Shown piece by piece: positions 6,489 through 29,975 of a DNA stretch of 32,000 nt; within the stretch, counting starts at the first letter, position 1, and each line of letters begins with the position of its first letter. Made by a program: the position numbers and the translations under genes. The stretch comes from Candidatus Baldrarchaeota archaeon. Lineage in GTDB: Archaea; Asgardarchaeota; Baldrarchaeia; Baldrarchaeales; DXJG01. Under the pieces are notes generated by a model. The model had not been told where the DNA came from and made no database searches. It saw only the letters and a list, made by a program, of their open reading frames with translations. The stretch is from contig DXJG01000010.1 of the NCBI GenBank assembly GCA_019056805.1, positions 59,771-91,770 of the forward strand, given 5' to 3'.

Positions 6489-6870
6489 GATTGAAAGCTT
6501 TTCTTTCATTTAATTGCGACAGAGTAGGAAACGTATTATTTGAGAGGCAGTAAAGTGGAAAGAAGTTGCAGTGATGACGAGGTTCTACTTGAAGTAGGGT
6601 TATCTGTGCAGAGTATCATAATGTTTTGAATTAACTTCAATTTTATCTCTCATACCATCTTTTTAAGATAAACTTAAAAGTAATGCCATATTCTTTTTCT
6701 GCAACTGTTTTATCGATGTAGTTTTATGTTGTGTCGAACAGTGAAAATAGATTTAATTTTGGAAAATATATTTTGATTTAACAATTTTGTAAGGATTTAA
6801 ACGATTGTAATTGAGATTGTGAAGAAAGTGTAAATAAGTGATATTAATCATTTATTATGAGGTGTTGTTT

Positions 6871-8082
6871 GTGATAGGGGTTTCATCTCCTGCTCGTGCC
6901 GATTTTTTAAATACTCATCAAGATTATAAGGGTCTCCCTGTAGTTCCTGCTGCTCTAAATATTCGTTTAAGAATTAAGGGAAAGGCTATAGGTGGAGATA
7001 AAGTTTATGTTCGTTCTTTAAATTTTTTGAGGGAAGATTTGCCTTGTGAAGACGAGTTTTCGCTTAATAATGTTTCTTATAGAGAGAGGGGCTGGTTTGG
7101 AAACTATGTTAGAGCTGTAGTAAATATTTTGAAGAGAAAGGGCTATGGAGATAGGATTTCTGGCGTGAAAATTGAGATTGATAGTGAGATTCCAATGGGA
7201 GGGGGATTAGGTAGCAGTGGCTCTTTGGAAGTGGCTTTAGTAAAGTTTTTTGACGCTGCTTTTAATCTGGGTCTTTCTACTAGGGAGGTTGCAGAGTTTT
7301 CTTATCTTGCTGAGCGAGAAGAACTAGGTATTCCATGTGGGAGATTAGATCAGTATGGGGCTGCTTTTGGTGGCATTATAAAGTTGGAAACTCGTCCACC
7401 ATTTGGTGTGGAGGTTCTTCCAAAAAGAGATTTTCTTTTCGTTATTGTAGATACGGGTATTAAGCATAGTACTGCAGATATTCATCCAAGAAGGCAACGT
7501 GAAATTGATGAAGGATTGAAACAACTACTTGAACAAAAACTTCCAGAAGATTTAAGGGAAAAGCTTTCTTTGAATCATTATGAAGTTAAATGGGAGAAGA
7601 TATCTGAGGACGGGTTGCTTCCATATCTTTCAACAATAAACGAGAAGTCTGCAAATCGAATTCTTTTCACAATTTACATGCATAAATCCACCGAGTTAGC
7701 GCTTAGAATTCTTCGAAATCAAGCTGTTAGTGCAAGAGAAGTTGCTAAAGTAACTCAAATTCCATATGAAGATATTGAGAGGAAGATAGAGAGAGGTAGG
7801 AGAGATCTTGTTCTTCTCGGGTTAATTGTTGATTATCAACATATGCTTTTGAGGGATTTATATGAGGTAAGTTTGCCAGAGGTAGAGGAGATAAGAGATG
7901 CTATGCTCGAAGCTGGAGCTTATGGTGTTAAGATTTCAGGTGCTGGACTTGGTGGAGCTATAATTGGAATTGTGGATAATGTGAATGTAGGGGAGAAGGT
8001 GTTTAAAGCAGGTATTGAAAATGGTGGTGTGAGAGGTTGGGTTTCATTTATTGGTGAAGGTGTTAAAGTGGAGGTTACATGA
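6871..8082 (+). CDS. galK: GHMP-family sugar kinase, galactokinase-like with a divergent sugar-binding signature
   Basis: Start reassigned to GTG 6871 (gaggtg at 6859-6864). Motifs PARADFLNTHQDY, IPMGGGLGSSGS, GIPCGRLDQY and KISGAGLGG. The ATG of galT follows the stop after one base. Confidence 0.75.
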   Translation: MIGVSSPARADFLNTHQDYKGLPVVPAALNIRLRIKGKAIGGDKVYVRSLNFLREDLPCEDEFSLNNVSYRERGWFGNYVRAVVNILKRKGYGDRISGVKIEIDSEIPMGGGLGSSGSLEVALVKFFDAAFNLGLSTREVAEFSYLAEREELGIPCGRLDQYGAAFGGIIKLETRPPFGVEVLPKRDFLFVIVDTGIKHSTADIHPRRQREIDEGLKQLLEQKLPEDLREKLSLNHYEVKWEKISEDGLLPYLSTINEKSANRILFTIYMHKSTELALRILRNQAVSAREVAKVTQIPYEDIERKIERGRRDLVLLGLIVDYQHMLLRDLYEVSLPEVEEIRDAMLEAGAYGVKISGAGLGGAIIGIVDNVNVGEKVFKAGIENGGVRGWVSFIGEGVKVEVT

Positions 8083-8083
8083 A

Positions 8084-9073
8084 ATGGAGAAAATATCTTT
8101 TAGGTTGGAGCTTAGATGGAATCCTTTGCTTAGGGAATGGGTTATTGTTGCTGCTCATCGAGAGTTTAGGCCGTGGCAACCTAAGGTTGAATGTCCGTTT
8201 TGCCCCGGTTCTGAAGAAATACGAGAGGAATGGGAAGTTCTTGCTCTTCCAAACAGATTTCCTTCTTTGGTTGAGAATCCTCCTCCACCGTTTTCTTCTC
8301 CTAAGTTTCCCTATAAGGTGGAAAAGGCTTATGGGATTTGTGAGATAGTTGTGGAAACTCCAAATCATGAAGGTGATTTATGTAATTTATCACAGGAGAA
8401 TATGAGGAAGGTGATTGATCTTTTTGTTGAGAGGTACAGGGAACTGGGTTCAAAGGATTTTGTGAAGTATGTTTTTATATTTAGGAATAAGGGGGCTGTT
8501 ATCGGGGTTTCTTTACATCATCCCCATTCTCAAATATACGCGTTTCCTTTTATTCCTCCTAAAATAGAGAGGGAATTGAAATCAGCATTAGAATACTCTA
8601 AGAACCATGGAAAATGTCTGTTTTGTGATGTAATTAAAGCTGAAAAAGAAGATGGTAGGAGAATAATTTATGAAAGTAAATATATGATGGTTTTTGTTCC
8701 TTATTCTGCAATGTGGCCTTACGAGCTTCATATATATCCCAAGCGTCATTTAGGTTCTTTACTGGATACGAATGAGGAAGAAAGAGATGATTTAGCACGG
8801 GTTCTTCGTGTTGTTACTGCAACATATAATTCTTTGTTTGATTTTAGTATGCCTTACATTATGGTGTTTCATCAAGTTCCAACCGATGGTGGAAAATACG
8901 ATTTTTATCATATGCATATCGAGTTTTATCCCCCTTACAGAGATAAAGAAAAGTTGAAGCATGCTGCAGGGGTAGAATGGGGTGCTGGAGTTTTCATATA
9001 TAGTGGAGAACCAGAAGTTAGGGCGAAAGAGTTGAGAGAGACTTGTGAGAAGATTTTAGGAAAAATAAGTTAA
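8084..9073 (+). CDS. galT: Galactose-1-phosphate uridylyltransferase (HIT superfamily)
   Basis: ELRWNPLLREWVIVAAHR..RP, Zn site CPFCPG, NRFP and catalytic HPHSQ in GVSLHHPHSQ. Start set at ATG 8084. Confidence 0.92.
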   Translation: MEKISFRLELRWNPLLREWVIVAAHREFRPWQPKVECPFCPGSEEIREEWEVLALPNRFPSLVENPPPPFSSPKFPYKVEKAYGICEIVVETPNHEGDLCNLSQENMRKVIDLFVERYRELGSKDFVKYVFIFRNKGAVIGVSLHHPHSQIYAFPFIPPKIERELKSALEYSKNHGKCLFCDVIKAEKEDGRRIIYESKYMMVFVPYSAMWPYELHIYPKRHLGSLLDTNEEERDDLARVLRVVTATYNSLFDFSMPYIMVFHQVPTDGGKYDFYHMHIEFYPPYRDKEKLKHAAGVEWGAGVFIYSGEPEVRAKELRETCEKILGKIS

Positions 9074-19063: not shown

Positions 19064-20440
19064 TTATGCTATTTGTAGTAGCTGTAGATCAGGTATTTCT
19101 GCGTCATCTAAATAATAAGTATTGTAGATGGGTGTTCTATGTCTGATACCGTGAATAAAGACATAACCGTGTTTGTAAAATACTTCGATTATACGGTCTG
19201 ACATATCTTTAATGTGATTTTTTATTGCAGAACTTTCATGAGCAAAAACAAAAATTATATCGTTTCTTTCTCTTGCTTCCATAATCATTCTTGTTCCGAT
19301 TCTAAGTCCTTCCACCGGGCCAAAAACATTTTCTAAAGCATCTATTGAAAACATTATACCAGTAGTCTTAGAAACCTTATGTAAGTATTCCAAACCTTTC
19401 ATGTATTGCTCAAGAAAATCGTTTTCATCCGTTAACCTGGTAATTAATTTAAATTTCTTAAGATAGCTTTCATCGGGGACAAGCATTTTAATCATGCCGA
19501 CGATGAAACTTTTAGCTCCGTATCTTGGAGGCACTAAAAGTACACCATTATTTCTTAAAAGAAAACTTATAATGTGATGGCCCATAATTGCTGCAATTAC
19601 CCCTGATGGTACATTTTCCCGTATTAAATATAACACTAGATTTCCGCCACGTAACTTACCCATTATTTTATCCAAGGATGGTGATCCTGTTGGATGTTCG
19701 CCTGCAGTACTTTTACCGCTACGAATAAAACTTACATACTTGGCAATTTTATCTTTGATTTTAACTGGGTTAGGAAATGTAAATTCTTTTGGAAGTGTGA
19801 ATCTACCGCCGTAGAGAGTGAATGGAATTATAGGTCTTTCTATTTCCACTGCTCTTAATTTTTCAATTATCATTTCTCGATAAATTTTTCCATCAATATA
19901 TTCATATGTTAGACTAATAACCCCATCTGCAAGATAATCTAATTTCGTGATCTCCTTTGGATTTTCAGTTACGATAATGGATTTTATGTTGGATGTTCTA
20001 GCTAATTCGGCAAAACTATGTACAAATTTTTCTTGTGGTGTGTTTATTGTTTCACAAACTGAGTCTATTGAGTCTATTACAATAAATGCATCCTTCTCAT
20101 TTTCTATTCTTTTTAATCCTGCGTATAATCCTCGTAAAAATTCTGGTATTGAAGAATACATAATGGCATCATAAGTGCTTTGACTTTTAGGGAACGGGGT
20201 TACAGTAGCGTCGATTATATTCTTGGGTGGAAGATGTTCTGCAACATAGGGGTACTGTTTTATGACGGTTTCTGGATTAACTCTTGTTGAGTAATATAAT
20301 CCACATCCCTTTTTTGCTAATCTAATAAGGCATTCAAGAGAAAATATTGTTTTTCCAGAACCAGGTTTCCCTTTCACAAGCAACGTGGAATTTCCTTCAA
20401 TGGAGAAGAATTTCAATATTTCTTTAGGGATAGAAGTCAT
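19064..20440 (-). CDS. Two-domain RecA/KaiC-superfamily ATPase, GvpD P-loop-like
   Basis: IPKEILKFF...TLLVKGKPGSGKT (Walker A), IVIDSID (Walker B) and DYLADGVISL...R.MIIEKLRA. The second domain (HPTGSPSLDKIMG) lacks a Walker A. Confidence 0.75.
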   Translation of the reverse strand: MTSIPKEILKFFSIEGNSTLLVKGKPGSGKTIFSLECLIRLAKKGCGLYYSTRVNPETVIKQYPYVAEHLPPKNIIDATVTPFPKSQSTYDAIMYSSIPEFLRGLYAGLKRIENEKDAFIVIDSIDSVCETINTPQEKFVHSFAELARTSNIKSIIVTENPKEITKLDYLADGVISLTYEYIDGKIYREMIIEKLRAVEIERPIIPFTLYGGRFTLPKEFTFPNPVKIKDKIAKYVSFIRSGKSTAGEHPTGSPSLDKIMGKLRGGNLVLYLIRENVPSGVIAAIMGHHIISFLLRNNGVLLVPPRYGAKSFIVGMIKMLVPDESYLKKFKLITRLTDENDFLEQYMKGLEYLHKVSKTTGIMFSIDALENVFGPVEGLRIGTRMIMEARERNDIIFVFAHESSAIKNHIKDMSDRIIEVFYKHGYVFIHGIRHRTPIYNTYYLDDAEIPDLQLLQIA

Positions 20441-20784: not shown

Positions 20785-21999
20785 TTACACTGCAAGTTTG
20801 TCTATTTCTTTTATTATTTCGTATGAGTATTTTAAGGCTTTTTTGATTGTTTGTTCTTCTATGTTTTCGTAGGTATCTGTGTACCAGTGCCAATTTGGCA
20901 ACAACCCTTTTTCATTAAAGCCCATGATGCTCATTGCTTTGAAGCCTCTTGCTATTGCAGGTGTTGCATCAGTAGGAAGCAACTTATATGTTCTTGAACG
21001 TATATTCCATTCTTCATGCGACTTTGCGACTTTATCCGCAATTTCAATGAGTAATTTGTCTGATTTCATAGTGGTAAGCAGTCCTTCTCCCGTAATATAG
21101 TATATGTCTCCACTTCCAACCATATCGAAGTTCAAAATGAACGTCTTATTTTTATCAAAGTTTTTTCCGTATTCTTTTAAGAAGTGAATCATTCCGAACA
21201 TACCTGACTCTTCGCTTCCAGTAGCAACACACCATACTTCTGTGCTTTCTAACGGATTTTTTGATAAGATTTCTGCCAAAGCTAAAACCATACTTGCACC
21301 TGATGCGTTGTCATTTGCACCAGGAATGTCTTTATAGATAGCTTCTCGATGTATCATTGAAAAGAATCCTAAAAATATGAAACCTATTGGAACAAGGGAT
21401 AGAATAAGTGCTAGGTCGCGTATATTTATGAAAAGAATGTTTGTTGAAATGAAAGTTTCATAAAGTAGAGTTATAATTAGTATTAGCGGGTATAGGATAC
21501 TTGAAAGTGCTATTGCGAGAAATAGTTTTCTAAAGTTTTTTACAAATTTTGGGTTAAAGAACCAAGCTGGTCTAGAGGAATCGTAATGTCCTGTTAAAAT
21601 TAAGCGGTATTTCACTTTATTCTTCGGTTTAATAATTGTAAATACGTTATAACTTAATCCCTTTAGCAAAATATAGTAAAGAACTGGTTTTGTTGAGCCT
21701 TCTAACAGAAATATTATCAAAGCTAAAATTGCTGGAGGTATGCTGAGAATTATATTGTAAAAGTAAAGTATAAATGATAGAATATAAAGTCCAAAGAGAA
21801 CGATATAAACCCACGAAAATGTGGAAAGTGTATAAAACTTTTGTTTTACAGGTTCTAAACCTAAAGATCTAAAGAAGTTAAAAATGTAGTCTGCAGCTTT
21901 TTCCTCGTTTTCCGAGGATGGCCTTCGAGGCCCTATATCAACAGACAAAGCGTATATGTGTTTCATAGGATTGACATTTTCGATCATGTCAAACCCCAC
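20785..21999 (-). CDS. M28-family metallopeptidase with inserted transmembrane segments
   Basis: GHYDS, GANDNASG, GSEESG, NFDMVG and WHWYTD zinc/catalytic motifs, with hydrophobic helices inserted. Confidence 0.85.
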   Translation of the reverse strand: MGFDMIENVNPMKHIYALSVDIGPRRPSSENEEKAADYIFNFFRSLGLEPVKQKFYTLSTFSWVYIVLFGLYILSFILYFYNIILSIPPAILALIIFLLEGSTKPVLYYILLKGLSYNVFTIIKPKNKVKYRLILTGHYDSSRPAWFFNPKFVKNFRKLFLAIALSSILYPLILIITLLYETFISTNILFINIRDLALILSLVPIGFIFLGFFSMIHREAIYKDIPGANDNASGASMVLALAEILSKNPLESTEVWCVATGSEESGMFGMIHFLKEYGKNFDKNKTFILNFDMVGSGDIYYITGEGLLTTMKSDKLLIEIADKVAKSHEEWNIRSRTYKLLPTDATPAIARGFKAMSIMGFNEKGLLPNWHWYTDTYENIEEQTIKKALKYSYEIIKEIDKLAV

Positions 22000-22211: not shown

Positions 22212-23951
22212 GTGGGGAATTATTTAAAACTACATAAAAAATTTAGTTTGACAATTGTGCTTATTCTTGTTGTCTTATTGCTTTTCGATTCTTATTTAAG
22301 TTCTTCTTTAACTATAAGGAACCGTACAACAAACTATTCTCTTGTTACATCTAAGGAAGACAGTAAAGTTATTTTTGTACCCGATGATTACACTACGATT
22401 CAAGAAGCTGTTAATGCTGCTAATGGCTACGATATAATCATTGTTAGAGATGGAATTTACATTGAAAACGTTGAAATCCATAAAACAGTTGTTATTGTAT
22501 CTGAAAACGGTCCAAATTCAACCATTGTGCAAGCAAAAAACATTGAACAGCCTGTTTTCACGATTGAAGCAAGTTTTGTTAATTTAACCGGTTTTACCAT
22601 TAAAGATGCTGTTAAAAGTGCTGGAATATTAATTGATAGCTCTGGAAATATTATAAGTAATAATATTGTTGTAAATAACACTTATGGAATCCGTTTAGAG
22701 TTTGCAACAAGATATAATACTATATTCAATAATACAATTAGAAATAACACCTACGGGATTTATAATTCTGGTTCTGAGTCTAACAACTTTTACCTAAACT
22801 GCCTTATAAACAGCAAAAATTACTATACTAGGTATTCTCTCTTTTCTAAGGGTAATTCATGGAGTTCACCTAAAGAAATTACATATTACTATGAAGGAAG
22901 GAATTATACGAGTTTCCTTGGCAATTTTTGGAGTGATTATGACGGTGAAGATGTTGATAACGATGGAATAGGTGACACACCTTATGAAGCGAGTAAGGAA
23001 GATGTTGATTATTTTCCATTAATCGGAATTTGGATAAATAAAACCATAATATTTGTAGATGTAACTCCACCTTCAGTTATTGAAATAATTATTTCACCTG
23101 AATGTCCAAAAGCATATGAAGATGTCCGTATAGCCGCCAAGATAGTCGATAAAAGAAGTGGAGTAAAAAAGGCGACTTTATACTATAGTGTTAATGATGG
23201 AGAATGGATAAAGATTGAAATGGTTGAGAAAAATGGTTATTGGATCACTACAATACCTGGCCAACCAGGAGGAAGTTTTCTTAAATTTTTCATTGAAACT
23301 GTTGATAGTAAAGGTAATGTTGGTAGAAGTTATACTAGATACTATGAAATACCTGGTTTTCCAACTTCAGAGCTGTTAATAGCTATAATACTGTTTGTTA
23401 TAACTTTCTCGACAATTTCATTTTTTAGAAAAATACAAGAAAGAGAAGAAGAGTTTTTTGAAATTCCAGAAGATATTTTAGATCAAGTTCAACAAGAAGA
23501 AGAGGGAGGTACAGCGATTTCAAAGGTTTCAACTTATTCTAACGGTGATAAGAAAAGAGTGATAGAGCCTTTAAAAATTGGAGAAGAAGAAAAACGTATT
23601 CTTTTTGATTTAGAAAGTGAGAAAATGGCTCTCGAAGATTTAATAACTGACTTGAATAGAAAGTTTGAAACTGGGAAAATAGATTTCTTAGAATACTCTA
23701 AACTTTTTAAAGAGTATAGAAAAGAACTTCATTTAATTGAAAAGAAACTTATGAGATTTAAATTAAAGTTAGGATTAATTGAACATTTTAGATGTATGGT
23801 ATGCGGATTAGAAATAATGGAAAACGAAGATATCGTTTTTTGCCCATACTGCAAAAATCCAGCTCATAGGGATCATTTGTTAGAATGGCTTCATATCAAA
23901 GGTATATGTCCAAACTGCAGACGTTTTATCAGAAGAGAAGATTTAACTTAA
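22212..23951 (+). CDS. Single-pass membrane protein: signal/anchor, NosD/CASH beta-helix, Ig-like domain, TM helix, cytosolic coiled coil and C-terminal RING-like zinc finger
   Basis: VPDDYTTIQEAVNAA, Asn-ladder repeats, GNFWSDYDGEDVDNDGIGDTPY, DVTPP..SGVKKATLYY, TM at 23373-23426 and CMVC-x12-CPYC-x4-HRDH-x10-CPNCR at 23793-23924. Confidence 0.85.
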   Translation: MGNYLKLHKKFSLTIVLILVVLLLFDSYLSSSLTIRNRTTNYSLVTSKEDSKVIFVPDDYTTIQEAVNAANGYDIIIVRDGIYIENVEIHKTVVIVSENGPNSTIVQAKNIEQPVFTIEASFVNLTGFTIKDAVKSAGILIDSSGNIISNNIVVNNTYGIRLEFATRYNTIFNNTIRNNTYGIYNSGSESNNFYLNCLINSKNYYTRYSLFSKGNSWSSPKEITYYYEGRNYTSFLGNFWSDYDGEDVDNDGIGDTPYEASKEDVDYFPLIGIWINKTIIFVDVTPPSVIEIIISPECPKAYEDVRIAAKIVDKRSGVKKATLYYSVNDGEWIKIEMVEKNGYWITTIPGQPGGSFLKFFIETVDSKGNVGRSYTRYYEIPGFPTSELLIAIILFVITFSTISFFRKIQEREEEFFEIPEDILDQVQQEEEGGTAISKVSTYSNGDKKRVIEPLKIGEEEKRILFDLESEKMALEDLITDLNRKFETGKIDFLEYSKLFKEYRKELHLIEKKLMRFKLKLGLIEHFRCMVCGLEIMENEDIVFCPYCKNPAHRDHLLEWLHIKGICPNCRRFIRREDLT

Positions 23952-24131: not shown

Positions 24132-24545
24132 ATGATTGGAATCATCGTTATTTCCCATGGAAAATTTGCTGAACACTTGATAAAGTCAGCAGAATTAATT
24201 GTAGGTAGACAAGAAAAGATAGTTCCTGTTCATTTGTTAGAAGGTGAGAGTCCAGAGAGATTTGAAGAGAAACTTCGTGAAGCTTTTAGGAATGTTAAAT
24301 CTGATCATGGAGTTCTTATTCTTTCTGACCTTTTTGGTGGAAGTACCGTTAGAGTAGCTGCTCGTTTTCTCTTTGACGAAGAAAAAGTGGAAGTCGTTGC
24401 TGGGGTAAATATGCCAATGTTATTGGAAGTTCTACTTAACAGAGAAGATACAGATTTGAAAAAATTGGTTAAAATAGCGGTTGATGCAGGAAAAAGCGGT
24501 GTAGTAGATTTCAGAGAAAAAATTGAAAAAAATGTTAAAGGTTGA
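24132..24545 (+). CDS. PTS mannose/fructose/sorbose-family EIIA component
   Basis: MIGIIVISHGKFA (phospho-His), LILSDLFGGS and VVAGVNMPMLLE. Confidence 0.92.
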   Translation: MIGIIVISHGKFAEHLIKSAELIVGRQEKIVPVHLLEGESPERFEEKLREAFRNVKSDHGVLILSDLFGGSTVRVAARFLFDEEKVEVVAGVNMPMLLEVLLNREDTDLKKLVKIAVDAGKSGVVDFREKIEKNVKG

Positions 24546-25032
24546 AGTGTTTTTCAAGTATTTCTAAAAAGTTGACTGCTTTGTCTTCCGGGAGTTGTTG
24601 GTAAATTAGTTTTATCCCGGTGTCTGCTATTTCTTTTAACGCCTTTGCTTCGTTTTCATTTAATGACACAGTTTTTGCTACACGTTTTCTTCCTTCTTCA
24701 TAGCCTAGTTGTCCAATGTCTAACCATTCGAATTTTACTCCGCCCTTTACAAGTCCCAGTGCATCGAAAGGAGTTTTTACTATGATGAAAACCTTTTCCT
24801 TTTCCCATTTATTTGAATTGTACTCTGAGATAGCTTCATTTATTCCTAATATTGAAACTTTTACACTTGTAGGCGCAGCAAGCGGTAGTGTCATTTTTGC
24901 GATTGGATCCTGTGCAACTTTGTCATTTACCACTATGATTCGATCTGGATTTGTTTTTCGTGCCCATTTAACTGTAACTTGCCCATGAATTAAGCGGTCA
25001 TCCAGTCTTACGAGGACTATTGGCATTTTCAT
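24535..25032 (-). CDS. PTS mannose/fructose/sorbose-family EIIB component
   Basis: LVRLDDRLIHGQV (phospho-His), IIVVNDKVAQD and LDIGQL. Tail-to-tail 11-nt overlap with EIIA. Confidence 0.92.
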   Translation of the reverse strand: MKMPIVLVRLDDRLIHGQVTVKWARKTNPDRIIVVNDKVAQDPIAKMTLPLAAPTSVKVSILGINEAISEYNSNKWEKEKVFIIVKTPFDALGLVKGGVKFEWLDIGQLGYEEGRKRVAKTVSLNENEAKALKEIADTGIKLIYQQLPEDKAVNFLEILEKHFNL

Positions 25033-25034
25033 CC

Positions 25035-25778
25035 CTACAGATGGCGTAATTTATCTTTATATTTTAGAGCTAACTGTAAATTATGTAATTCGGATCCTTC
25101 TACGTTTCCACTAACCCAGATTGGAGGGTCTATCCCTCTTTTCCTAAGGTTTTCCGCTACTTGCGCAACAAGAGCATTTAATATAGTAGCGGCTGTAATG
25201 GTGGATGTTGGTGCAACTTTATACTTGACCCCCTCTATATCAAGTATTGCATCTCCTAAAATTCCACAGTTATCTATAACTACATCTGCTAACTCGTAGA
25301 GTTTCTTACCGCTTGGATGTCTTGATTTCATGTTTTTACTGTGTTCTATTGAAGTTATTGCTATGATTTTCGCTCCTCTTTTCTTTCCTTCAATTGCCAT
25401 CTCAACTGGAACTGCATTAATTCCGCTGTTTGAGACAATAATTAAGACATCTTTCCCAGTTATAAAATAATAATTTAGGAGAATTGCGGCGTACCCTGAC
25501 AATTTTTCTAACATACTGCTTTTGAAAGCTCCAGTGTGAAGCATGAAGCTAGGATCTAAAATTGCACCGAAACATGCTAGTCCTCCTGCTCTTGCAAATG
25601 CTTCTTCTGCAATTAAGTGGCTATGTCCAGTACCGAATACGTAGACCATTCCATCATTGACAATAGCATCTGTTATCATATTTGCAGCTGTTTGTATAGT
25701 TTCTTTCTGTGTTTCAACTATTTTCTTCAAAATTTCAAAAACTTTATTGAAGAATCTTTCTGCAGCGGTTTCTGCCAC
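25035..25778 (-). CDS. SIS-domain sugar-phosphate protein, UPF0309 family (NagS-like)
   Basis: VFGTGHSHLIAEE..RAGGL, LEKLSGYA, IVSNSGINAVPVEMA, SRHPSGKKLYELADVVIDN...GDA. The GTG start abuts the IIC-IID stop. Confidence 0.85.
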   Translation of the reverse strand: MAETAAERFFNKVFEILKKIVETQKETIQTAANMITDAIVNDGMVYVFGTGHSHLIAEEAFARAGGLACFGAILDPSFMLHTGAFKSSMLEKLSGYAAILLNYYFITGKDVLIIVSNSGINAVPVEMAIEGKKRGAKIIAITSIEHSKNMKSRHPSGKKLYELADVVIDNCGILGDAILDIEGVKYKVAPTSTITAATILNALVAQVAENLRKRGIDPPIWVSGNVEGSELHNLQLALKYKDKLRHL

Positions 25779-27407
25779 TTATATACCTCCTAGTCCCAGA
25801 CCTATGAGACCGAGCGCTCCAAGTACAAATCCTACAGCCATTAGTATGAGAAGTGTACGAATCGGCGAGTACCCTTTCCGTATAAGATGGTATGCTAGGA
25901 AGAATATTGGCAGTGATAATATTCCTGAGAAGAGGATGCCGATAGCAGTTGTTATTGGGAATAAGGGTGTGCTTATTTTTACTATTACTGGTATAAAGGC
26001 TCCTATGACAACTAATCCTAGTAATTCTGCTCCTTCTCTCAATCTTTGGAATTTTGCGCCCATTGTTTGAAGCATTGTTAGTCCACGTTTATAACCGGTT
26101 TTTAAGCCCCAGTATCGGAATCCTAAAGTTATAGCATCAAAGAGTACGAGTCCTATGATTGGTGCTAGCATTACGACATTGTGGTATGCTAATGTTGATG
26201 CGTAAAGCAGTATCATGCCTGCAATTAAGAAGTAGAATAAGGCATCGCCAATACCAGCCATGGGTCCCATCATTGCAGCTTTAAAGTTTCTAAGTGTGTC
26301 CTCGTCTTTCCCTTGGATTTGTTCTTCTAAAGCTAAATTTGCACCTAGTATAACTGAGGTGATTATTGGGTTGCAATTAAAGAATTCTAGGTGCCGTTTC
26401 ATAGCCTTCTTTAAATCATTTTCATCTTTGTATATTTTTTTGAGTCCTGGAAGTATTGTGTAAAGATATCCAAGTGCTTGCATTCTCTCATAGTTCCATG
26501 AGGCTTCGAAAGTGAGAAATCTTAGAAAAACATTGTTAAGAGTCTTATTGTCAAGTAAAGGCTTATATGTAGAGGTTAACACACCTGCTTCTTCTTTTGT
26601 TTCATATTTTCCTCTTACTCTAAGCCATGCAACGAAGACTCCTATAATAGAGGTAATTAGAAGAGCTATCCAATCAAAGCCAGCAATTTGAACACCGTAG
26701 AGTGCAACAAGGGTAAGCAAAGAAACGATAAAACCTATTGCGAAATATATTGGTTTCTTGCGGAATGGAAGAAAGCTTAGGAGGATAGCAAGACCGACAG
26801 CTGGAAGTATGGTTGCCATTCCTGCAAGCCCGGTTAAAACCCAGCCTGCATATTTCTCCATGAAAATAACGAATTCTTCTATGTATTCTCCGCCAAGCCA
26901 TACTGCGAAGAATGTTGGGATTGCTCTGCTAAGTCCCCAGGGAATAAATCCTAGGAGATGGAAGCGTCCAACAGCTTTTAGATCTCCTTCTTCAATTTTT
27001 CTTTCTGCTGCATGTATTAAGCTAATGTTTACAGTTCTTGTTAGAATGTCAAGTTGTTGTCCTATGAATGCGACTGCTAATGCGAATCCGAAGAGAGCTG
27101 CTCCTGTTTCTGTAACTCCACCTGGCACTACTACTTCTATTCCTTGGAGAATTGCAACTGCAGTAAAGAAGAACGTTGCAGAGGTCATATCTGGCGGGAC
27201 GGAGCCACCAATTGGAATAAGACCTAATGAAATTAGTTGCATATATGCTCCTACTAATAGTCCTGTTGTCGGATCTCCAAGTATTATTCCAGTGATGAAG
27301 CCTCCAAATAAAGGTAATATTCCAAGAAGAACTTTAGGTCCTACTGCATCAACCATTGCAATAAATGCCCATATAGCTACTAATAGAGCTCCGGTTAGAA
27401 GATCCAT
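25779..27407 (-). CDS. PTS mannose-family permease, fused EIIC-EIID
   Basis: IIC half: PLFGGFITGIILGD..TGLLVGAYMQLISLG..PIGGSVPPD. IID half: EASWNYERMQALG, RHLEFFNCNP, MGPMAGIGDALF. One continuous frame. Start set at ATG 27407 after gggtgagg. Confidence 0.9.
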   Translation of the reverse strand: MDLLTGALLVAIWAFIAMVDAVGPKVLLGILPLFGGFITGIILGDPTTGLLVGAYMQLISLGLIPIGGSVPPDMTSATFFFTAVAILQGIEVVVPGGVTETGAALFGFALAVAFIGQQLDILTRTVNISLIHAAERKIEEGDLKAVGRFHLLGFIPWGLSRAIPTFFAVWLGGEYIEEFVIFMEKYAGWVLTGLAGMATILPAVGLAILLSFLPFRKKPIYFAIGFIVSLLTLVALYGVQIAGFDWIALLITSIIGVFVAWLRVRGKYETKEEAGVLTSTYKPLLDNKTLNNVFLRFLTFEASWNYERMQALGYLYTILPGLKKIYKDENDLKKAMKRHLEFFNCNPIITSVILGANLALEEQIQGKDEDTLRNFKAAMMGPMAGIGDALFYFLIAGMILLYASTLAYHNVVMLAPIIGLVLFDAITLGFRYWGLKTGYKRGLTMLQTMGAKFQRLREGAELLGLVVIGAFIPVIVKISTPLFPITTAIGILFSGILSLPIFFLAYHLIRKGYSPIRTLLILMAVGFVLGALGLIGLGLGGI

Positions 27408-27506
27408 ATCCCTCACCCACACTATTTAAAATACTTTAAAGGAGAGTCATCATATATACATGTTACTTTAATGAAATTTTATTGTTTATATTTGGAGGGC
27501 AGTCTT

Positions 27507-28673
27507 ATGGGCAAAAAACATCTTTTAATCAAGGGAGGAACTGTTATCACACCTTTTGAAATTATTGAAGACGGAGCTGTACTAATAGAAGGAGAAAAAA
27601 TCAAGAAAGTTGGAAAAATCAACGAGATAAACGTTTCTTCTTCCTTAAAAACTATTGATGTGGAGGGAAAGTATATTGTGCCTGGATTTATAGATCTCCA
27701 TACTCATGGTGGCGGTGGTTACGATATCTTGGTGGATGCAAACTATGATGCTATCAATAAATTATCTGGTTTTTATGCTATTCATGGTGTTACTTCGTTT
27801 CTTGCTACTACAGTAACAGCTCCACATGAAGTTTTAAAAAATGCAATGAAAACATTAAGGGAAGTTATTGAGAGAGGAACTGGAGGAGCGCAAATACTTG
27901 GAATACATTTGGAAGGCCCATGGATAAGTAAAAAGAAGCCTGGAGCTCAGCCGGTTCAATGGATACGTCCACCATCTTTTGAAGAATTTATGAAATTGTA
28001 CGAGGAATCTGGGAAAAATATTAAACTTGTGACAATAGCACCTGAAGAAGAAGGAGGCTTAGAATTTGTAAAAAAACTACGTGAATTAGGAGTGGTTGTA
28101 GCTATTGGTCACAGTGCAGCGAGTTACGAAGAAGTTGTGAAAGCAGTAAAATGCGGTGTTTCTCATGCAGCTCATATGTTTAATGCAATGAAAGAGCTTC
28201 ATCATAGGAAACCTGGAACTGTTGGTGCAATACTGTCAATGGATAATATAACTGCGGAGATAATTGCAGATTGCATTCATGTTCATCCTGCTGTCATAAA
28301 AATTTTGGTGAAGGCAAAAGGTACAGATAAAGTATGTTTGATTACTGATTCTACTCCTTATGCTGGTATGCCAGATGGAGAATACATGTTCGCTGGCATA
28401 ATTAAGGTCACGGTGAAGAATGGTGAGTGTAGACTTCCAACTGGCCAATTGGCAGGCAGTGTATTAACTATGGATCGTGGTGTAAAAAACATGGTTGAAA
28501 AGGTTGGAGTTTCTTTAAAAGACGCGATAAAAATGGCTTCTTATAATCCTGCAAAAGTTATAGGTGTAGATAACGTGAAGGGAAGTATAGAGGCTGGTAA
28601 AGATGCAGATATAGTAATACTTAACAAAAATCTTGAAGTTGAAATGACAATAATTCGTGGTACCTCTCTCTAA
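27507..28673 (+). CDS. nagA: N-acetylglucosamine-6-phosphate deacetylase
   Basis: PGFIDLHTHGGGG, GVTSFLATT, GIHLEGPWI, IGHS, HMFNAM, IADCIHVHP, LITDS and LAGSVLTM. ATG 27507 follows ggaggg. Confidence 0.93.
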   Translation: MGKKHLLIKGGTVITPFEIIEDGAVLIEGEKIKKVGKINEINVSSSLKTIDVEGKYIVPGFIDLHTHGGGGYDILVDANYDAINKLSGFYAIHGVTSFLATTVTAPHEVLKNAMKTLREVIERGTGGAQILGIHLEGPWISKKKPGAQPVQWIRPPSFEEFMKLYEESGKNIKLVTIAPEEEGGLEFVKKLRELGVVVAIGHSAASYEEVVKAVKCGVSHAAHMFNAMKELHHRKPGTVGAILSMDNITAEIIADCIHVHPAVIKILVKAKGTDKVCLITDSTPYAGMPDGEYMFAGIIKVTVKNGECRLPTGQLAGSVLTMDRGVKNMVEKVGVSLKDAIKMASYNPAKVIGVDNVKGSIEAGKDADIVILNKNLEVEMTIIRGTSL

Positions 28674-28685
28674 CCTAATTTTAAT

Positions 28686-29975
28686 TCAAATATTTCTTAG
28701 AAAGTCTATTATTGAATTGTAGAGTTTTTGGCTACTATCTTTATCAATTATTGCGATAGCAGATTCATAGCTTAGTGACTCGTAAGTTTCAGGAGTTGGG
28801 ATATAACCTATGTATCCGTTGGCATAGCCAGCAATTATTGTAGTTTCAAAGGGAGAGTTTTCCTTGATTTTCATACCTATTTCTGCAAATAGTTCCCCTG
28901 GTACACCAACTATTGCAATGTTGTCTCCAAATGTAATGATTTGGATCTCAATTTTAACTGTTTTTCTTTCCAGTGGTCTAAGTCTATTAAGGTATTCTTT
29001 TAAGCCTTTAAGAGCTTCGTAAATAACAGTAACTCTTCTTAAATCCGCTGGTGAGCTCTTTCTCTTTTTTAAAGCCATATACGTAGCTTTTACTTGACTT
29101 ATCATGCTATTTATTTTCTCATCTGATGGAAATCTTCTCACATGCAACTCCATATCTTTCTTATTTACTTTTATTTCATCTATTTCAATTTTTTCAGATT
29201 TTTCAATCGCTACTAGTGCATATGCCCCTACAATGTTTCCAATTCTCTCTGCCTCACTAAAAGAAGATTCACGTCTCACATATCTCGTCGATATGTCTCC
29301 TGCTGCGCTGTTAAGAAAAAGCGGCACGGAATTGCTTTTTGCTTTCTCAATAAGTGACATAGCATAACCTGGATAATCAGCGGAAATGAGAAGATTTGAT
29401 GCATCAAGTACTGTTGGATGACAAGCAAAATTAATAATTGCAGAAATAAGTTTTCCATCATTGTTATCAAATCTTATCGAAATAAGTTGTTTATCTACAG
29501 GCCCGTTTTTAACTCGGCGATTTGCAGAAGCGCCTTCAACAATAACTTTTCCTATTCGCACCTCTGCTGTTCTCATCTTTTCTACTGCATTTAATATTGA
29601 TTGATTAATTTTTGTTTTCAGAGTTGAAATCAATTTCTCGTTAGGATCGGATCTACTCGGAAATATTGTATCTCTGAAAATTCCATCTGGACCCGCATGT
29701 GTATGAGTTGCAGCAACCATAACGTTTTCTTTATCTATTCCAGTAGTTTCTTCTATATCTTCTCTAACTTCTTCTACCATTTTTCTATCAACAGCAAGTA
29801 AATCTAACGATATTATTGCAACAGTTTTTTCCCCATCATCTATTGCAAGTGATCTAACGTAAAGAGGGTCATGAACACCAATTGATAGCGAAGTTCTTTC
29901 AAGATAGCCTCCTAATGGAACACTAGAGGAAGGAGTAATATCTATTTTTGAAACACCAACTTTAATTTTCTTCAT
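28686..29975 (-). CDS. Neutral/alkaline ceramidase-like amidohydrolase (N-terminal domain family)
   Basis: GVSKIDITP, GVHDPLYVRSLA, ATHTHAGP, NFACHPTVL, ISADYPG, GDIS, VPGELF and GYANGYIGYIP. Confidence 0.85.
   Translation of the reverse strand: MKKIKVGVSKIDITPSSSVPLGGYLERTSLSIGVHDPLYVRSLAIDDGEKTVAIISLDLLAVDRKMVEEVREDIEETTGIDKENVMVAATHTHAGPDGIFRDTIFPSRSDPNEKLISTLKTKINQSILNAVEKMRTAEVRIGKVIVEGASANRRVKNGPVDKQLISIRFDNNDGKLISAIINFACHPTVLDASNLLISADYPGYAMSLIEKAKSNSVPLFLNSAAGDISTRYVRRESSFSEAERIGNIVGAYALVAIEKSEKIEIDEIKVNKKDMELHVRRFPSDEKINSMISQVKATYMALKKRKSSPADLRRVTVIYEALKGLKEYLNRLRPLERKTVKIEIQIITFGDNIAIVGVPGELFAEIGMKIKENSPFETTIIAGYANGYIGYIPTPETYESLSYESAIAIIDKDSSQKLYNSIIDFLRNI

Follow-up and report, generated by a model that had tools for sequence, protein, structure and literature searches.

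We analysed a 32,000-nucleotide stretch of DNA (the window) from a Candidatus Baldrarchaeota archaeon (assembly GCA_019056805.1, contig DXJG01000010.1, positions 59,771 to 91,770 of the forward strand). [quoted passage not shown] Its open reading frame (ORF), 22212-23951 on the plus strand, starts with GTG and specifies 579 amino acids (aa); the boundaries given in the original prediction, made from the sequence by a reader without database searches, match the translation exactly. The gene and the parts of its product are listed below, with the evidence for each; AF2 denotes AlphaFold2, pLDDT the predicted local distance difference test and TM a transmembrane segment.

22212..23951, plus strand: whole gene, ectodomain-TM-hairpin-RING protein, 579 aa (ORF list and translation; six full-length orthologs)
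22245..22301, plus strand: N-terminal hydrophobic segment, residues 12-30, with K6, K9 and K10 ahead of it (hydropathy scan, AF2 helix, flanking charges)
22359..22946, plus strand: right-handed beta-helix of NosD/CASH type, residues ~50-245 (Pfam NosD and Beta_helix; AF2 pLDDT 85-96)
23073..23351, plus strand: membrane-proximal beta-sandwich, FnIII/CBM56-like, residues 288-380 (AF2 strands at pLDDT 70-88; Foldseek)
23364..23429, plus strand: TM helix, residues 385-406 (hydropathy at 388-406; AF2 helix at 385-405; all sequons precede it)
23430..23579, plus strand: cytoplasmic linker, residues 407-456, acidic, weakly conserved and predicted to be disordered (pLDDT <50 for 401-456; ortholog alignment)
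23580..23768, plus strand: Vps23-core/steadiness-box-like helical hairpin, residues 457-519 (identity to UEV-Vps23; AF2 pLDDT 89-98; predicted Vps28 interface)
23790..23948, plus strand: RING finger, residues 527-579 (Prok-RING_1; identity to the RING of the ubiquitin operon; RING/U-box fold; sequence matches to RNF24 and EL5; conservation)

The hydropathy scan found two hydrophobic segments in the protein, at residues 12-30 and 388-406. The first may be a signal peptide, which would be cleaved, or an uncleaved anchor; the second is the single TM helix that had been placed at 23373-23426 (residues 388-405), and the AF2 helix at 385-405 agrees with it. The ectodomain has nine N-x-S/T sequons and the tail has none, which fits a topology with the ectodomain outside and the tail inside. 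The first full-length AF2 model, built from seven sequences, was confident for the beta-helix (~50-215), the beta-sandwich (288-380), the TM helix (385-405) and the two helices of the hairpin (458-486 and 492-519). The RING reached a pLDDT of only 45-50 in that model, and the tail was then re-modelled from an alignment of 46 sequences. The acidic linker and the helical hairpin read from the sequence at the outset were both recovered, the linker (407-456) at pLDDT <50 and the hairpin now refined to a Vps23-core/steadiness-box-like module. Six full-length orthologs share the whole architecture, with identities of 46-62% across the alignment, and their best-conserved parts are the hairpin and the RING (mean column identity 84% in the tail vs 68% in the whole protein).

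The ubiquitin system on which the original prediction depended is present in this genome (1.92 Mb, 91% complete; the gene under study lies on contig C18): ubiquitin, E1, E2, a small RING E3, JAB proteins and ESCRT-I, ESCRT-II and ESCRT-III are all encoded. One cluster, on contig C17, holds in order a Yip1/zinc-ribbon protein, E1 (ThiF, 230 bits), E2 (UQ_con, 131 bits, with the HPN motif and the catalytic Cys), ubiquitin (57 bits, ending RTTGG-stop), a small RING protein (86 aa, Prok-RING_1, 36 bits), a coiled-coil protein, UEV-Vps23 (UQ_con/UEV and Vps23_core), Vps28, whose gene abuts that of UEV-Vps23, a 95-aa protein and EAP30 (Vps22/36). In locus coordinates (L016) the genes of E1, E2 and ubiquitin occupy 6766-7815, 7788-8252 and 8285-8518, each on the minus strand. 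The genome further contains a pair of JAB/MPN proteins and a pair of Snf7 (ESCRT-III) genes. The gene of the Yip1-domain membrane protein, which carries an N-terminal zinc ribbon (C17, 166009-166761; L016 6010-6762, plus strand), is convergent with the E1 gene and directly beside it; an association of Yip1 with ubiquitin and UEV-Vps23 has been described in Hodarchaeia (bioRxiv 10.1101/2023.07.25.550441). By sequence comparison, the tail of the protein studied here is made of two modules that are paralogous to two closely spaced genes of this cluster, the small RING and UEV-Vps23.

The RING ligands follow the order C528-x2-C531-x12-C544-x2-C547-x4-H552-x2-H555-x10-C566-x2-C569 and are accompanied by the motifs LLEWL (W559) and CPNCR (P567, R570); this spacing and both motifs had been read exactly from the translation. 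Residues 527-554 match Prok-RING_1 (PF14446) with 29.6 bits against a cutoff of 29.1, and with 33.8 bits in a six-frame search of the genome, while residues 527-578 are 63% identical to the small RING of the genome's ubiquitin operon (E 3e-27). The same ligand pattern occurs in 3 of the 15,639 six-frame ORFs of the genome, so it is not a product of chance; the other two are the operon's small RING and a 319-aa protein (contig C9, 276855-277811, minus strand) with ~8 TM helices, a zinc ribbon and a C-terminal RING, which constitutes a second, polytopic membrane RING protein of this genome. The equivalents of the E2-contact residues (V530, W559, P567) and the linchpin (R570) are invariant in the alignment of the six full-length orthologs, and the eight ligands together with E558, W559 and P567 are conserved in at least 90% of 46 family members. 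The Trp and the Arg had been put forward as hallmarks of RING E3 enzymes, and published mutants bear this out: in the small RING protein of Caldiarchaeum (srfp), which has the same C-x2-C knuckle in place of C3-x-H4, ubiquitylation is impaired by I30Q, W58A and R69A (PMC5654768), the positions equivalent to V530, W559 and R570.

The re-modelled tail (pLDDT 88.7; a predicted, zinc-free structure) points the same way. Its top Foldseek matches in the PDB were all RING/U-box E3 domains (root-mean-square deviation (rmsd) 1-2.3 A over 46-60 columns, probability 1.0), among them 3lrq, RNF24, EL5, RNF165, RNF12 and RNF38 with E2~Ub, the PA-TM-RING ligase RNF13, TRAF6 and Rad18, and the solved chains nearest to it by sequence were the RING-H2 fingers of RNF24 and EL5. 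Since the predicted model resembles RING/U-box E3 domains only, the non-cross-brace zinc ribbon that would have spoken against the original prediction was not found. A plain or double zinc ribbon, for which Pfam gave weak matches, was rejected on the same fold search. Some bacterial members of the Prok-RING families are noted in Pfam to have TM helices. Judging from homology, residue conservation and predicted fold, we consider it likely that the domain functions as a RING E3 in the ubiquitin system.

The hairpin preceding the RING has a counterpart in the ubiquitin-ESCRT cluster: over 57 aa, residues 457-513 share 58% identity with the hairpin at the C-terminus of the UEV-Vps23 encoded there (E 2e-17). 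In ESCRT-I the steadiness box holds Vps23, Vps28 and Vps37 together, and contacts between steadiness box and Vps28 underlie assembly (PMC10936438, PMC9192718). The 579-aa protein is itself not a Vps23 ortholog, because Pfam found no UEV/UQ_con match in it and because its hairpin comes after an ectodomain and a TM helix. For a co-fold with Vps28 of this genome (9 rows in its alignment) we took hairpin residues 450-525 (7 rows) and scored the models by ipSAE. The scores were 0.70, 0.70 and 0.72 vs 0.00 for the best control, a mark reached by 58 of 80 solved complexes and by 2 of 110 mismatched pairs; contact agreement between runs was at least 95% and partner pLDDT at least 84, and the predicted interface joins residues 8-45 of Vps28, its N-terminal hairpin, to residues 482-511 of the protein. 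These models support binding to Vps28, although they fall short of demonstrating it, and docking of the hairpin to Vps28/ESCRT-I is, on sequence and modelling, a tentative proposal to which we would give slightly less than even odds.

With the hairpin a paralog of the UEV-Vps23 steadiness box and the RING a paralog of the operon E3, the likely mechanism shifts from generic signalling to coupling with ESCRT-I. The protein would cross the membrane of this Baldrarchaeia-type Asgard archaeon once (or be hairpin-anchored in it), presenting a presumably glycosylated beta-helix of carbohydrate-associated type and a beta-sandwich on the outside and, on the inside, a steadiness-box-like hairpin followed by the RING. 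The RING would recruit E2~ubiquitin produced by the genome's E1/E2/ubiquitin operon and promote its transfer, an activity already demonstrated for homologous small RING E3s, as its homology, its conserved E2-contact and linchpin residues and its predicted fold suggest. The hairpin, by virtue of its paralogy and the passing co-fold, may bind the N-terminal hairpin of Vps28 in the manner of the Vps23 steadiness box, which would bring the ligase into ESCRT-I, or next to it, at the membrane. The ectodomain, going by its fold class, could provide specificity for a location or for a ligand, probably a glycan. In sum, the protein would be an E3 anchored in the membrane, tagging itself or membrane proteins around it with ubiquitin as a mark for the Asgard ubiquitin-ESCRT pathway; to this explanation we assign, from sequence and models, a probability of roughly 0.6. 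The core of the original prediction, a receptor-like membrane RING E3 in an archaeon with a ubiquitin system, has therefore stood up, the ubiquitin system having been found and a RING/U-box-type fold predicted; the link to ESCRT-I had escaped it, and the sugar permease proposed as a target gained no support (see below).

A number of points weigh against this explanation, beginning with the fact that all of it is computed from sequence and predicted structure. Several concern the hairpin. Pfam Vps23_core (PF09454) matches residues 463-502 with 20.7 bits, under the cutoff of 26.8 (the genome's bona fide UEV-Vps23 itself scores only 22.2 bits); the hairpin profile has no significant match in the PDB, where the yeast Vps23 core comes at E = 2; and the passing co-fold may simply mirror likeness, since solved structures of ESCRT-I headpieces exist and a true Vps28 partner is among the hairpin's close paralogs. 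Similar hairpins also occur on other proteins of the genome, namely a Ribophorin I homolog (two copies), a 2-TM protein and a protein of the Znr-CC-PH-SB type, so that the hairpin may be a general module for cytoplasmic docking or oligomerisation. As for the RING, its Prok-RING_1 score exceeds the cutoff by only 0.5 bit and covers profile positions 6-33 (28 of 54), zf-RING_2 stays under its cutoff (22.7 bits, Pfam), and the ligand set is non-canonical, with C-x2-C replacing C-x-H and a four-residue gap to H5. The full tail, finally, is found in two of the four GTDB genomes of the genus, the other two being 82-84% complete.

A first alternative accepts the RING E3 but takes the hairpin for no more than a self-association coiled coil that brings RINGs together, as in many dimeric RING ligases, with no contact to ESCRT-I. 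It draws on the like hairpins of unrelated membrane proteins in the genome and on the sub-threshold Vps23_core score, and also on the best PDB match of the hairpin profile, which is not Vps23 but a Ribophorin-1-superfamily fragment (8whn, E 0.09). The 58% identity to a hairpin encoded beside Vps28 argues against it, as does a co-fold of 0.70 over controls at 0.00 with the interface placed on the N-terminal hairpin of Vps28, and we regard it as rather improbable.

The other hairpin-bearing proteins deserve description in their own right. The Ribophorin I homolog (C17, 12984-14732; Pfam, 62.9 bits) consists of a signal, an ectodomain and a TM helix followed by a cytoplasmic tail in which two hairpins weakly resemble the steadiness box, and PDB entry 8whn ('Ribophorin 1 superfamily protein') has the same double hairpin motif; together they suggest that Asgard membrane proteins commonly carry this hairpin as a cytoplasmic module. 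A 209-aa protein without a Pfam match (C9, 330090-330716, minus strand) combines two TM helices and a coiled coil with a C-terminal steadiness-box-like hairpin (profile E 3e-6). A 517-aa zinc ribbon/coiled coil/bacterial-PH/steadiness-box protein (C17, 154991-156541, minus strand), encoded just downstream of the two ESCRT-III genes and convergent with them, fits the Znr_CC_PH_SB type of PMC10936438.

A second alternative sees in the protein a self-marking cargo or adaptor: the hairpin would be a substrate in cis of the RING instead of, or in addition to, a docking site, and its ubiquitylated lysines would be read by the UEV domain of UEV-Vps23, so that ESCRT-dependent vesicles carry off the protein together with whatever its ectodomain has bound. 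A Helarchaeial small RING E3 with E1 and E2 ubiquitylates Lys201 within the steadiness box of UEV-Vps23 (bioRxiv 10.1101/2023.07.25.550441), Asgard UEV domains bind ubiquitin (PMC9192718) and seven lysines (461, 471, 484, 489, 500, 517 and 519) are invariant in the hairpin. This scheme is compatible with the membrane-anchored ligase explanation and does not exclude it; as an account of its own we deem it unlikely.

It is very unlikely, thirdly, that the zinc domain is a structural or otherwise binding treble-clef finger and not an E3 at all, the protein then being a beta-helix enzyme or adhesin of the cell surface, anchored on its cytoplasmic side. The non-canonical ligands, the marginal Pfam scores and the weak matches to double zinc-ribbon models would fit such a finger, but the fold matches are exclusively RING/U-box E3s, the residues for E2 contact and the linchpin do not vary, a RING inside the ubiquitin operon shares 63% identity with the domain and the homologous srfp proteins are active E3s. 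The remaining alternative, that the ligase regulates the adjacent mannose-family phosphotransferase system (PTS) by ubiquitylating its permease, is barely credible: only 180 bp separate the gene from EIIA, which follows it on the same strand, the arrangement is retained in the closest ortholog and the PTS is probably functional because Enzyme I (EI) and HPr are present, but three more distant orthologs have no PTS nearby and, the wider region being syntenic, the adjacency may be inherited gene order.

The ectodomain of this putative membrane ligase consists of two domains. The NosD/CASH beta-helix read from the sequence was confirmed by Pfam NosD at residues 73-245 (E 3e-20), by Beta_helix at 71-196 and by a confident AF2 beta-helix. 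It carries the conserved motif FLGNFWSDYxGEDxDNDGIGDxPY, is one coil (~25 aa) shorter than in all six orthologs, with the gap after residue 145 (window 22650-22660 region), and resembles pectin methylesterases and phage tailspikes in Foldseek. An identity as NosD, the nitrous-oxide-reductase maturation factor, was considered and rejected: NCBIfam TIGR04247 gives 62 bits, far under its cutoff of 300, so the protein is not the NosD maturation protein and shares with it the beta-helix repeat domain only. The second domain had been called Ig-like; its beta-sandwich nature holds (AF2, 288-380), and the Ig label gives way to an FnIII/CBM56-like class, Foldseek having aligned it to CBM56 (5t7a, TMt 0.68, rmsd 2.4) and also to FnIII domains. 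On these models both folds are compatible with glycan binding or processing, although they are generic.

The nearest named homologs of the whole protein belong to Candidatus Baldrarchaeota/Baldrarchaeia. A full-length ortholog in Ca. Baldrarchaeota archaeon Yap30.bin4.67 was retrieved with an alignment as query, a single-protein query having given no match. When the tail profile was compared with 1.84 billion representatives, one 50%-identity cluster matched from end to end, and this was the Baldrarchaeota family; across 400 genomes of the phylum the RING alone was present in 278, and the full tail only in this genome and one congener. In Freyarchaeial relatives of 657-1687 aa, a NosD and/or DUF2341 ectodomain and a TM helix are followed by the hairpin and the RING, with an additional zinc ribbon between the two. 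Soluble relatives join HEAT or winged-helix repeats to hairpin and RING, and many archaeal relatives have a signal or TM segment, an ectodomain, a TM helix and the RING without the hairpin, their ectodomains including FG-GAP propellers and family-5 solute-binding, CarboxypepD_reg/PEGA and DUF5122 domains. Other hairpin+RING or TM-RING architectures are represented by P0131 (663 aa), P0138 (322 aa), P0169 (792 aa) and P0160/P0244; they include winged-helix/PCI-like repeats with hairpin, Zn ribbon and RING, HEAT repeats with hairpin and RING, and family-5 solute-binding or FG-GAP propeller ectodomains with TM helix and RING. Public annotation knows the relatives only as 'NosD domain-containing', 'DUF2341' or 'hypothetical'. 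Published Asgard work covers the small RING E3, UEV-Vps23, Vps28, free-standing steadiness-box proteins and Znr-CC-PH-SB, and in the literature on Asgard ubiquitin and ESCRT that we covered, which did not include Burroughs, Iyer and Aravind 2011 (Prok-RING families), we found no membrane-anchored hairpin+RING protein.

Upstream of the ligase gene the window contains genes for an M28 peptidase with a multi-TM N-terminal half (20785-21999, minus strand) and for a GvpD/KaiC-like P-loop ATPase of 458 aa (19064-20440, minus strand); the latter and a class-V aminotransferase are syntenic with the contig of the closest ortholog. Downstream lies a complete PTS of the mannose/sorbose family (window 24132-28673), with Enzyme I and HPr on contig C15 (90055-92032), in a layout resembling an uptake locus for amino sugars (aga/nag type):

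24132-24545, plus strand: EIIA
24535-25032, minus strand: EIIB
25035-25778, minus strand: SIS protein
25779-27422, minus strand: fused EIIC-EIID
27471-28673, plus strand: amidohydrolase

PTS systems are uncommon in archaea. Beyond the locus, a neutral/alkaline ceramidase-like protein is encoded at 28686-29975 on the minus strand (Pfam Ceramidase_alk N-terminal domain, 134 bits), a family of lipid enzymes that is mainly eukaryotic and bacterial and unexpected in an archaeon. Scanning the window for tRNA and Rfam features returned none.

Gene order lends no support to the proposal that the PTS permease is the target of the ligase. Synteny was checked for four orthologs, and the PTS arrangement is kept around the closest of them only, which comes from Guaymas Basin sediment; the three more distant ones are flanked by GHMP kinase and Gal-1-P uridylyltransferase (GalT) and by a deacetylase and an asparaginase. 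The adjacency is therefore not conserved, and we rejected the PTS as a conserved functional link. A sugar-metabolism neighbourhood nevertheless recurs in two different contexts, which is weak evidence. The deacetylase beside the three distant Baldrarchaeota orthologs is of the histone-deacetylase family, and large LVIVD-repeat proteins are encoded near two of them (L034 and L043).

Asgard archaea have ubiquitin, E1, E2 and RING enzymes and ESCRT-I, ESCRT-II and ESCRT-III, yet the published parts are soluble, and which targets are marked and how membrane cargo is chosen is a standing question. The protein described here offers a specific candidate, open to testing, for the membrane component that the Asgard ubiquitin-ESCRT pathway has so far lacked, and it could physically connect the cell surface with ubiquitin tagging and ESCRT sorting. 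It also shows that the ectodomain-TM-RING design known from receptor ligases of eukaryotes is present, as a modular arrangement, among the prokaryotes most closely related to them. If the predicted contact with Vps28 is real, the writing of ubiquitin and ESCRT-I would be physically linked in one polypeptide. A broader reading, which we consider doubtful, is that Asgard archaea already had ligand-facing, receptor-type TM RING ligases that a steadiness-box hairpin made part of ESCRT-I, in effect an alternative ESCRT-I subunit in which a RING writer on a surface receptor replaces the UEV reader. The protein would then belong to a modular family whose ectodomains (beta-helix, DUF2341, propellers, solute-binding domains) can be exchanged. 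Were such receptor-type ESCRT-I ligases to exist, the selection of membrane cargo for ubiquitin-ESCRT sorting would be older than eukaryotes and would prefigure both receptors of the PA-TM-RING type and the Tsg101/steadiness-box/RING ligase circuit.

Compared with known systems, the protein probably belongs to a known kind, the Asgard RING E3, with a membrane anchor, a receptor-like ectodomain, a fused steadiness-box-like hairpin and putative docking to Vps28 as its new elements. The closest likeness of the RING is to the srfp E3s of the Caldiarchaeum and Asgard ubiquitin operons (PF14446), which are of the same RING subtype with the extra Cys knuckle in place of C3-x-H4 (PMC5654768); the genome's own srfp is 63% identical, and the E2-contact Val/Ile, Trp and Pro and the linchpin Arg are common to both. 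Yet srfp is soluble, ~80-90 aa long and encoded inside the ubiquitin operon, whereas the 579-aa protein is encoded elsewhere (contig C18) and joins its RING to an ectodomain, a TM helix and a steadiness-box-like hairpin. With Asgard UEV-Vps23 it shares the 58% identical hairpin, which in the 579-aa protein is predicted to contact the N-terminal hairpin of Vps28, but it lacks the UEV domain and the long stalk, is membrane-anchored, has a RING after the hairpin and remains below the Vps23_core cutoff. Freyarchaeial proteins such as WXG39522.1, WXG42237.1 and MDO8082912.1, annotated as NosD or DUF2341 only, follow the same design with a hairpin+RING tail; they differ in the zinc ribbon between hairpin and RING, in far larger ectodomains (up to 1687 aa) and in a tail identity of ~33-35%.

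Among eukaryotic proteins, the single-pass TM RING-H2 ligases (the PA-TM-RING proteins RNF13, GRAIL/RNF128 and RNF43/ZNRF3, as well as RNF24 and plant ATL/EL5) have the same layout of a luminal or extracellular domain, a TM helix and a cytosolic finger of RING-H2 type; RNF24 and EL5 are the nearest solved sequences, and RNF13, RNF24 and EL5 are among the fold matches. PA-TM-RING proteins, however, have a luminal PA domain where the archaeal protein has a NosD-type beta-helix and a beta-sandwich, and they lack its C4H2C2 ligand order and added ESCRT-I-type hairpin. The layout is analogous and does not imply membership; orthology is unsupported, and the RING is too short for a reliable tree. Finally, the Tsg101-associated ligases Tal/LRSAM1 and Mahogunin of eukaryotes, as cited in bioRxiv 10.1101/2023.07.25.550441, likewise bring a RING E3 and the steadiness box of ESCRT-I together functionally: there, ligase and steadiness box reside on separate soluble proteins, whereas here the two are fused in one membrane protein.

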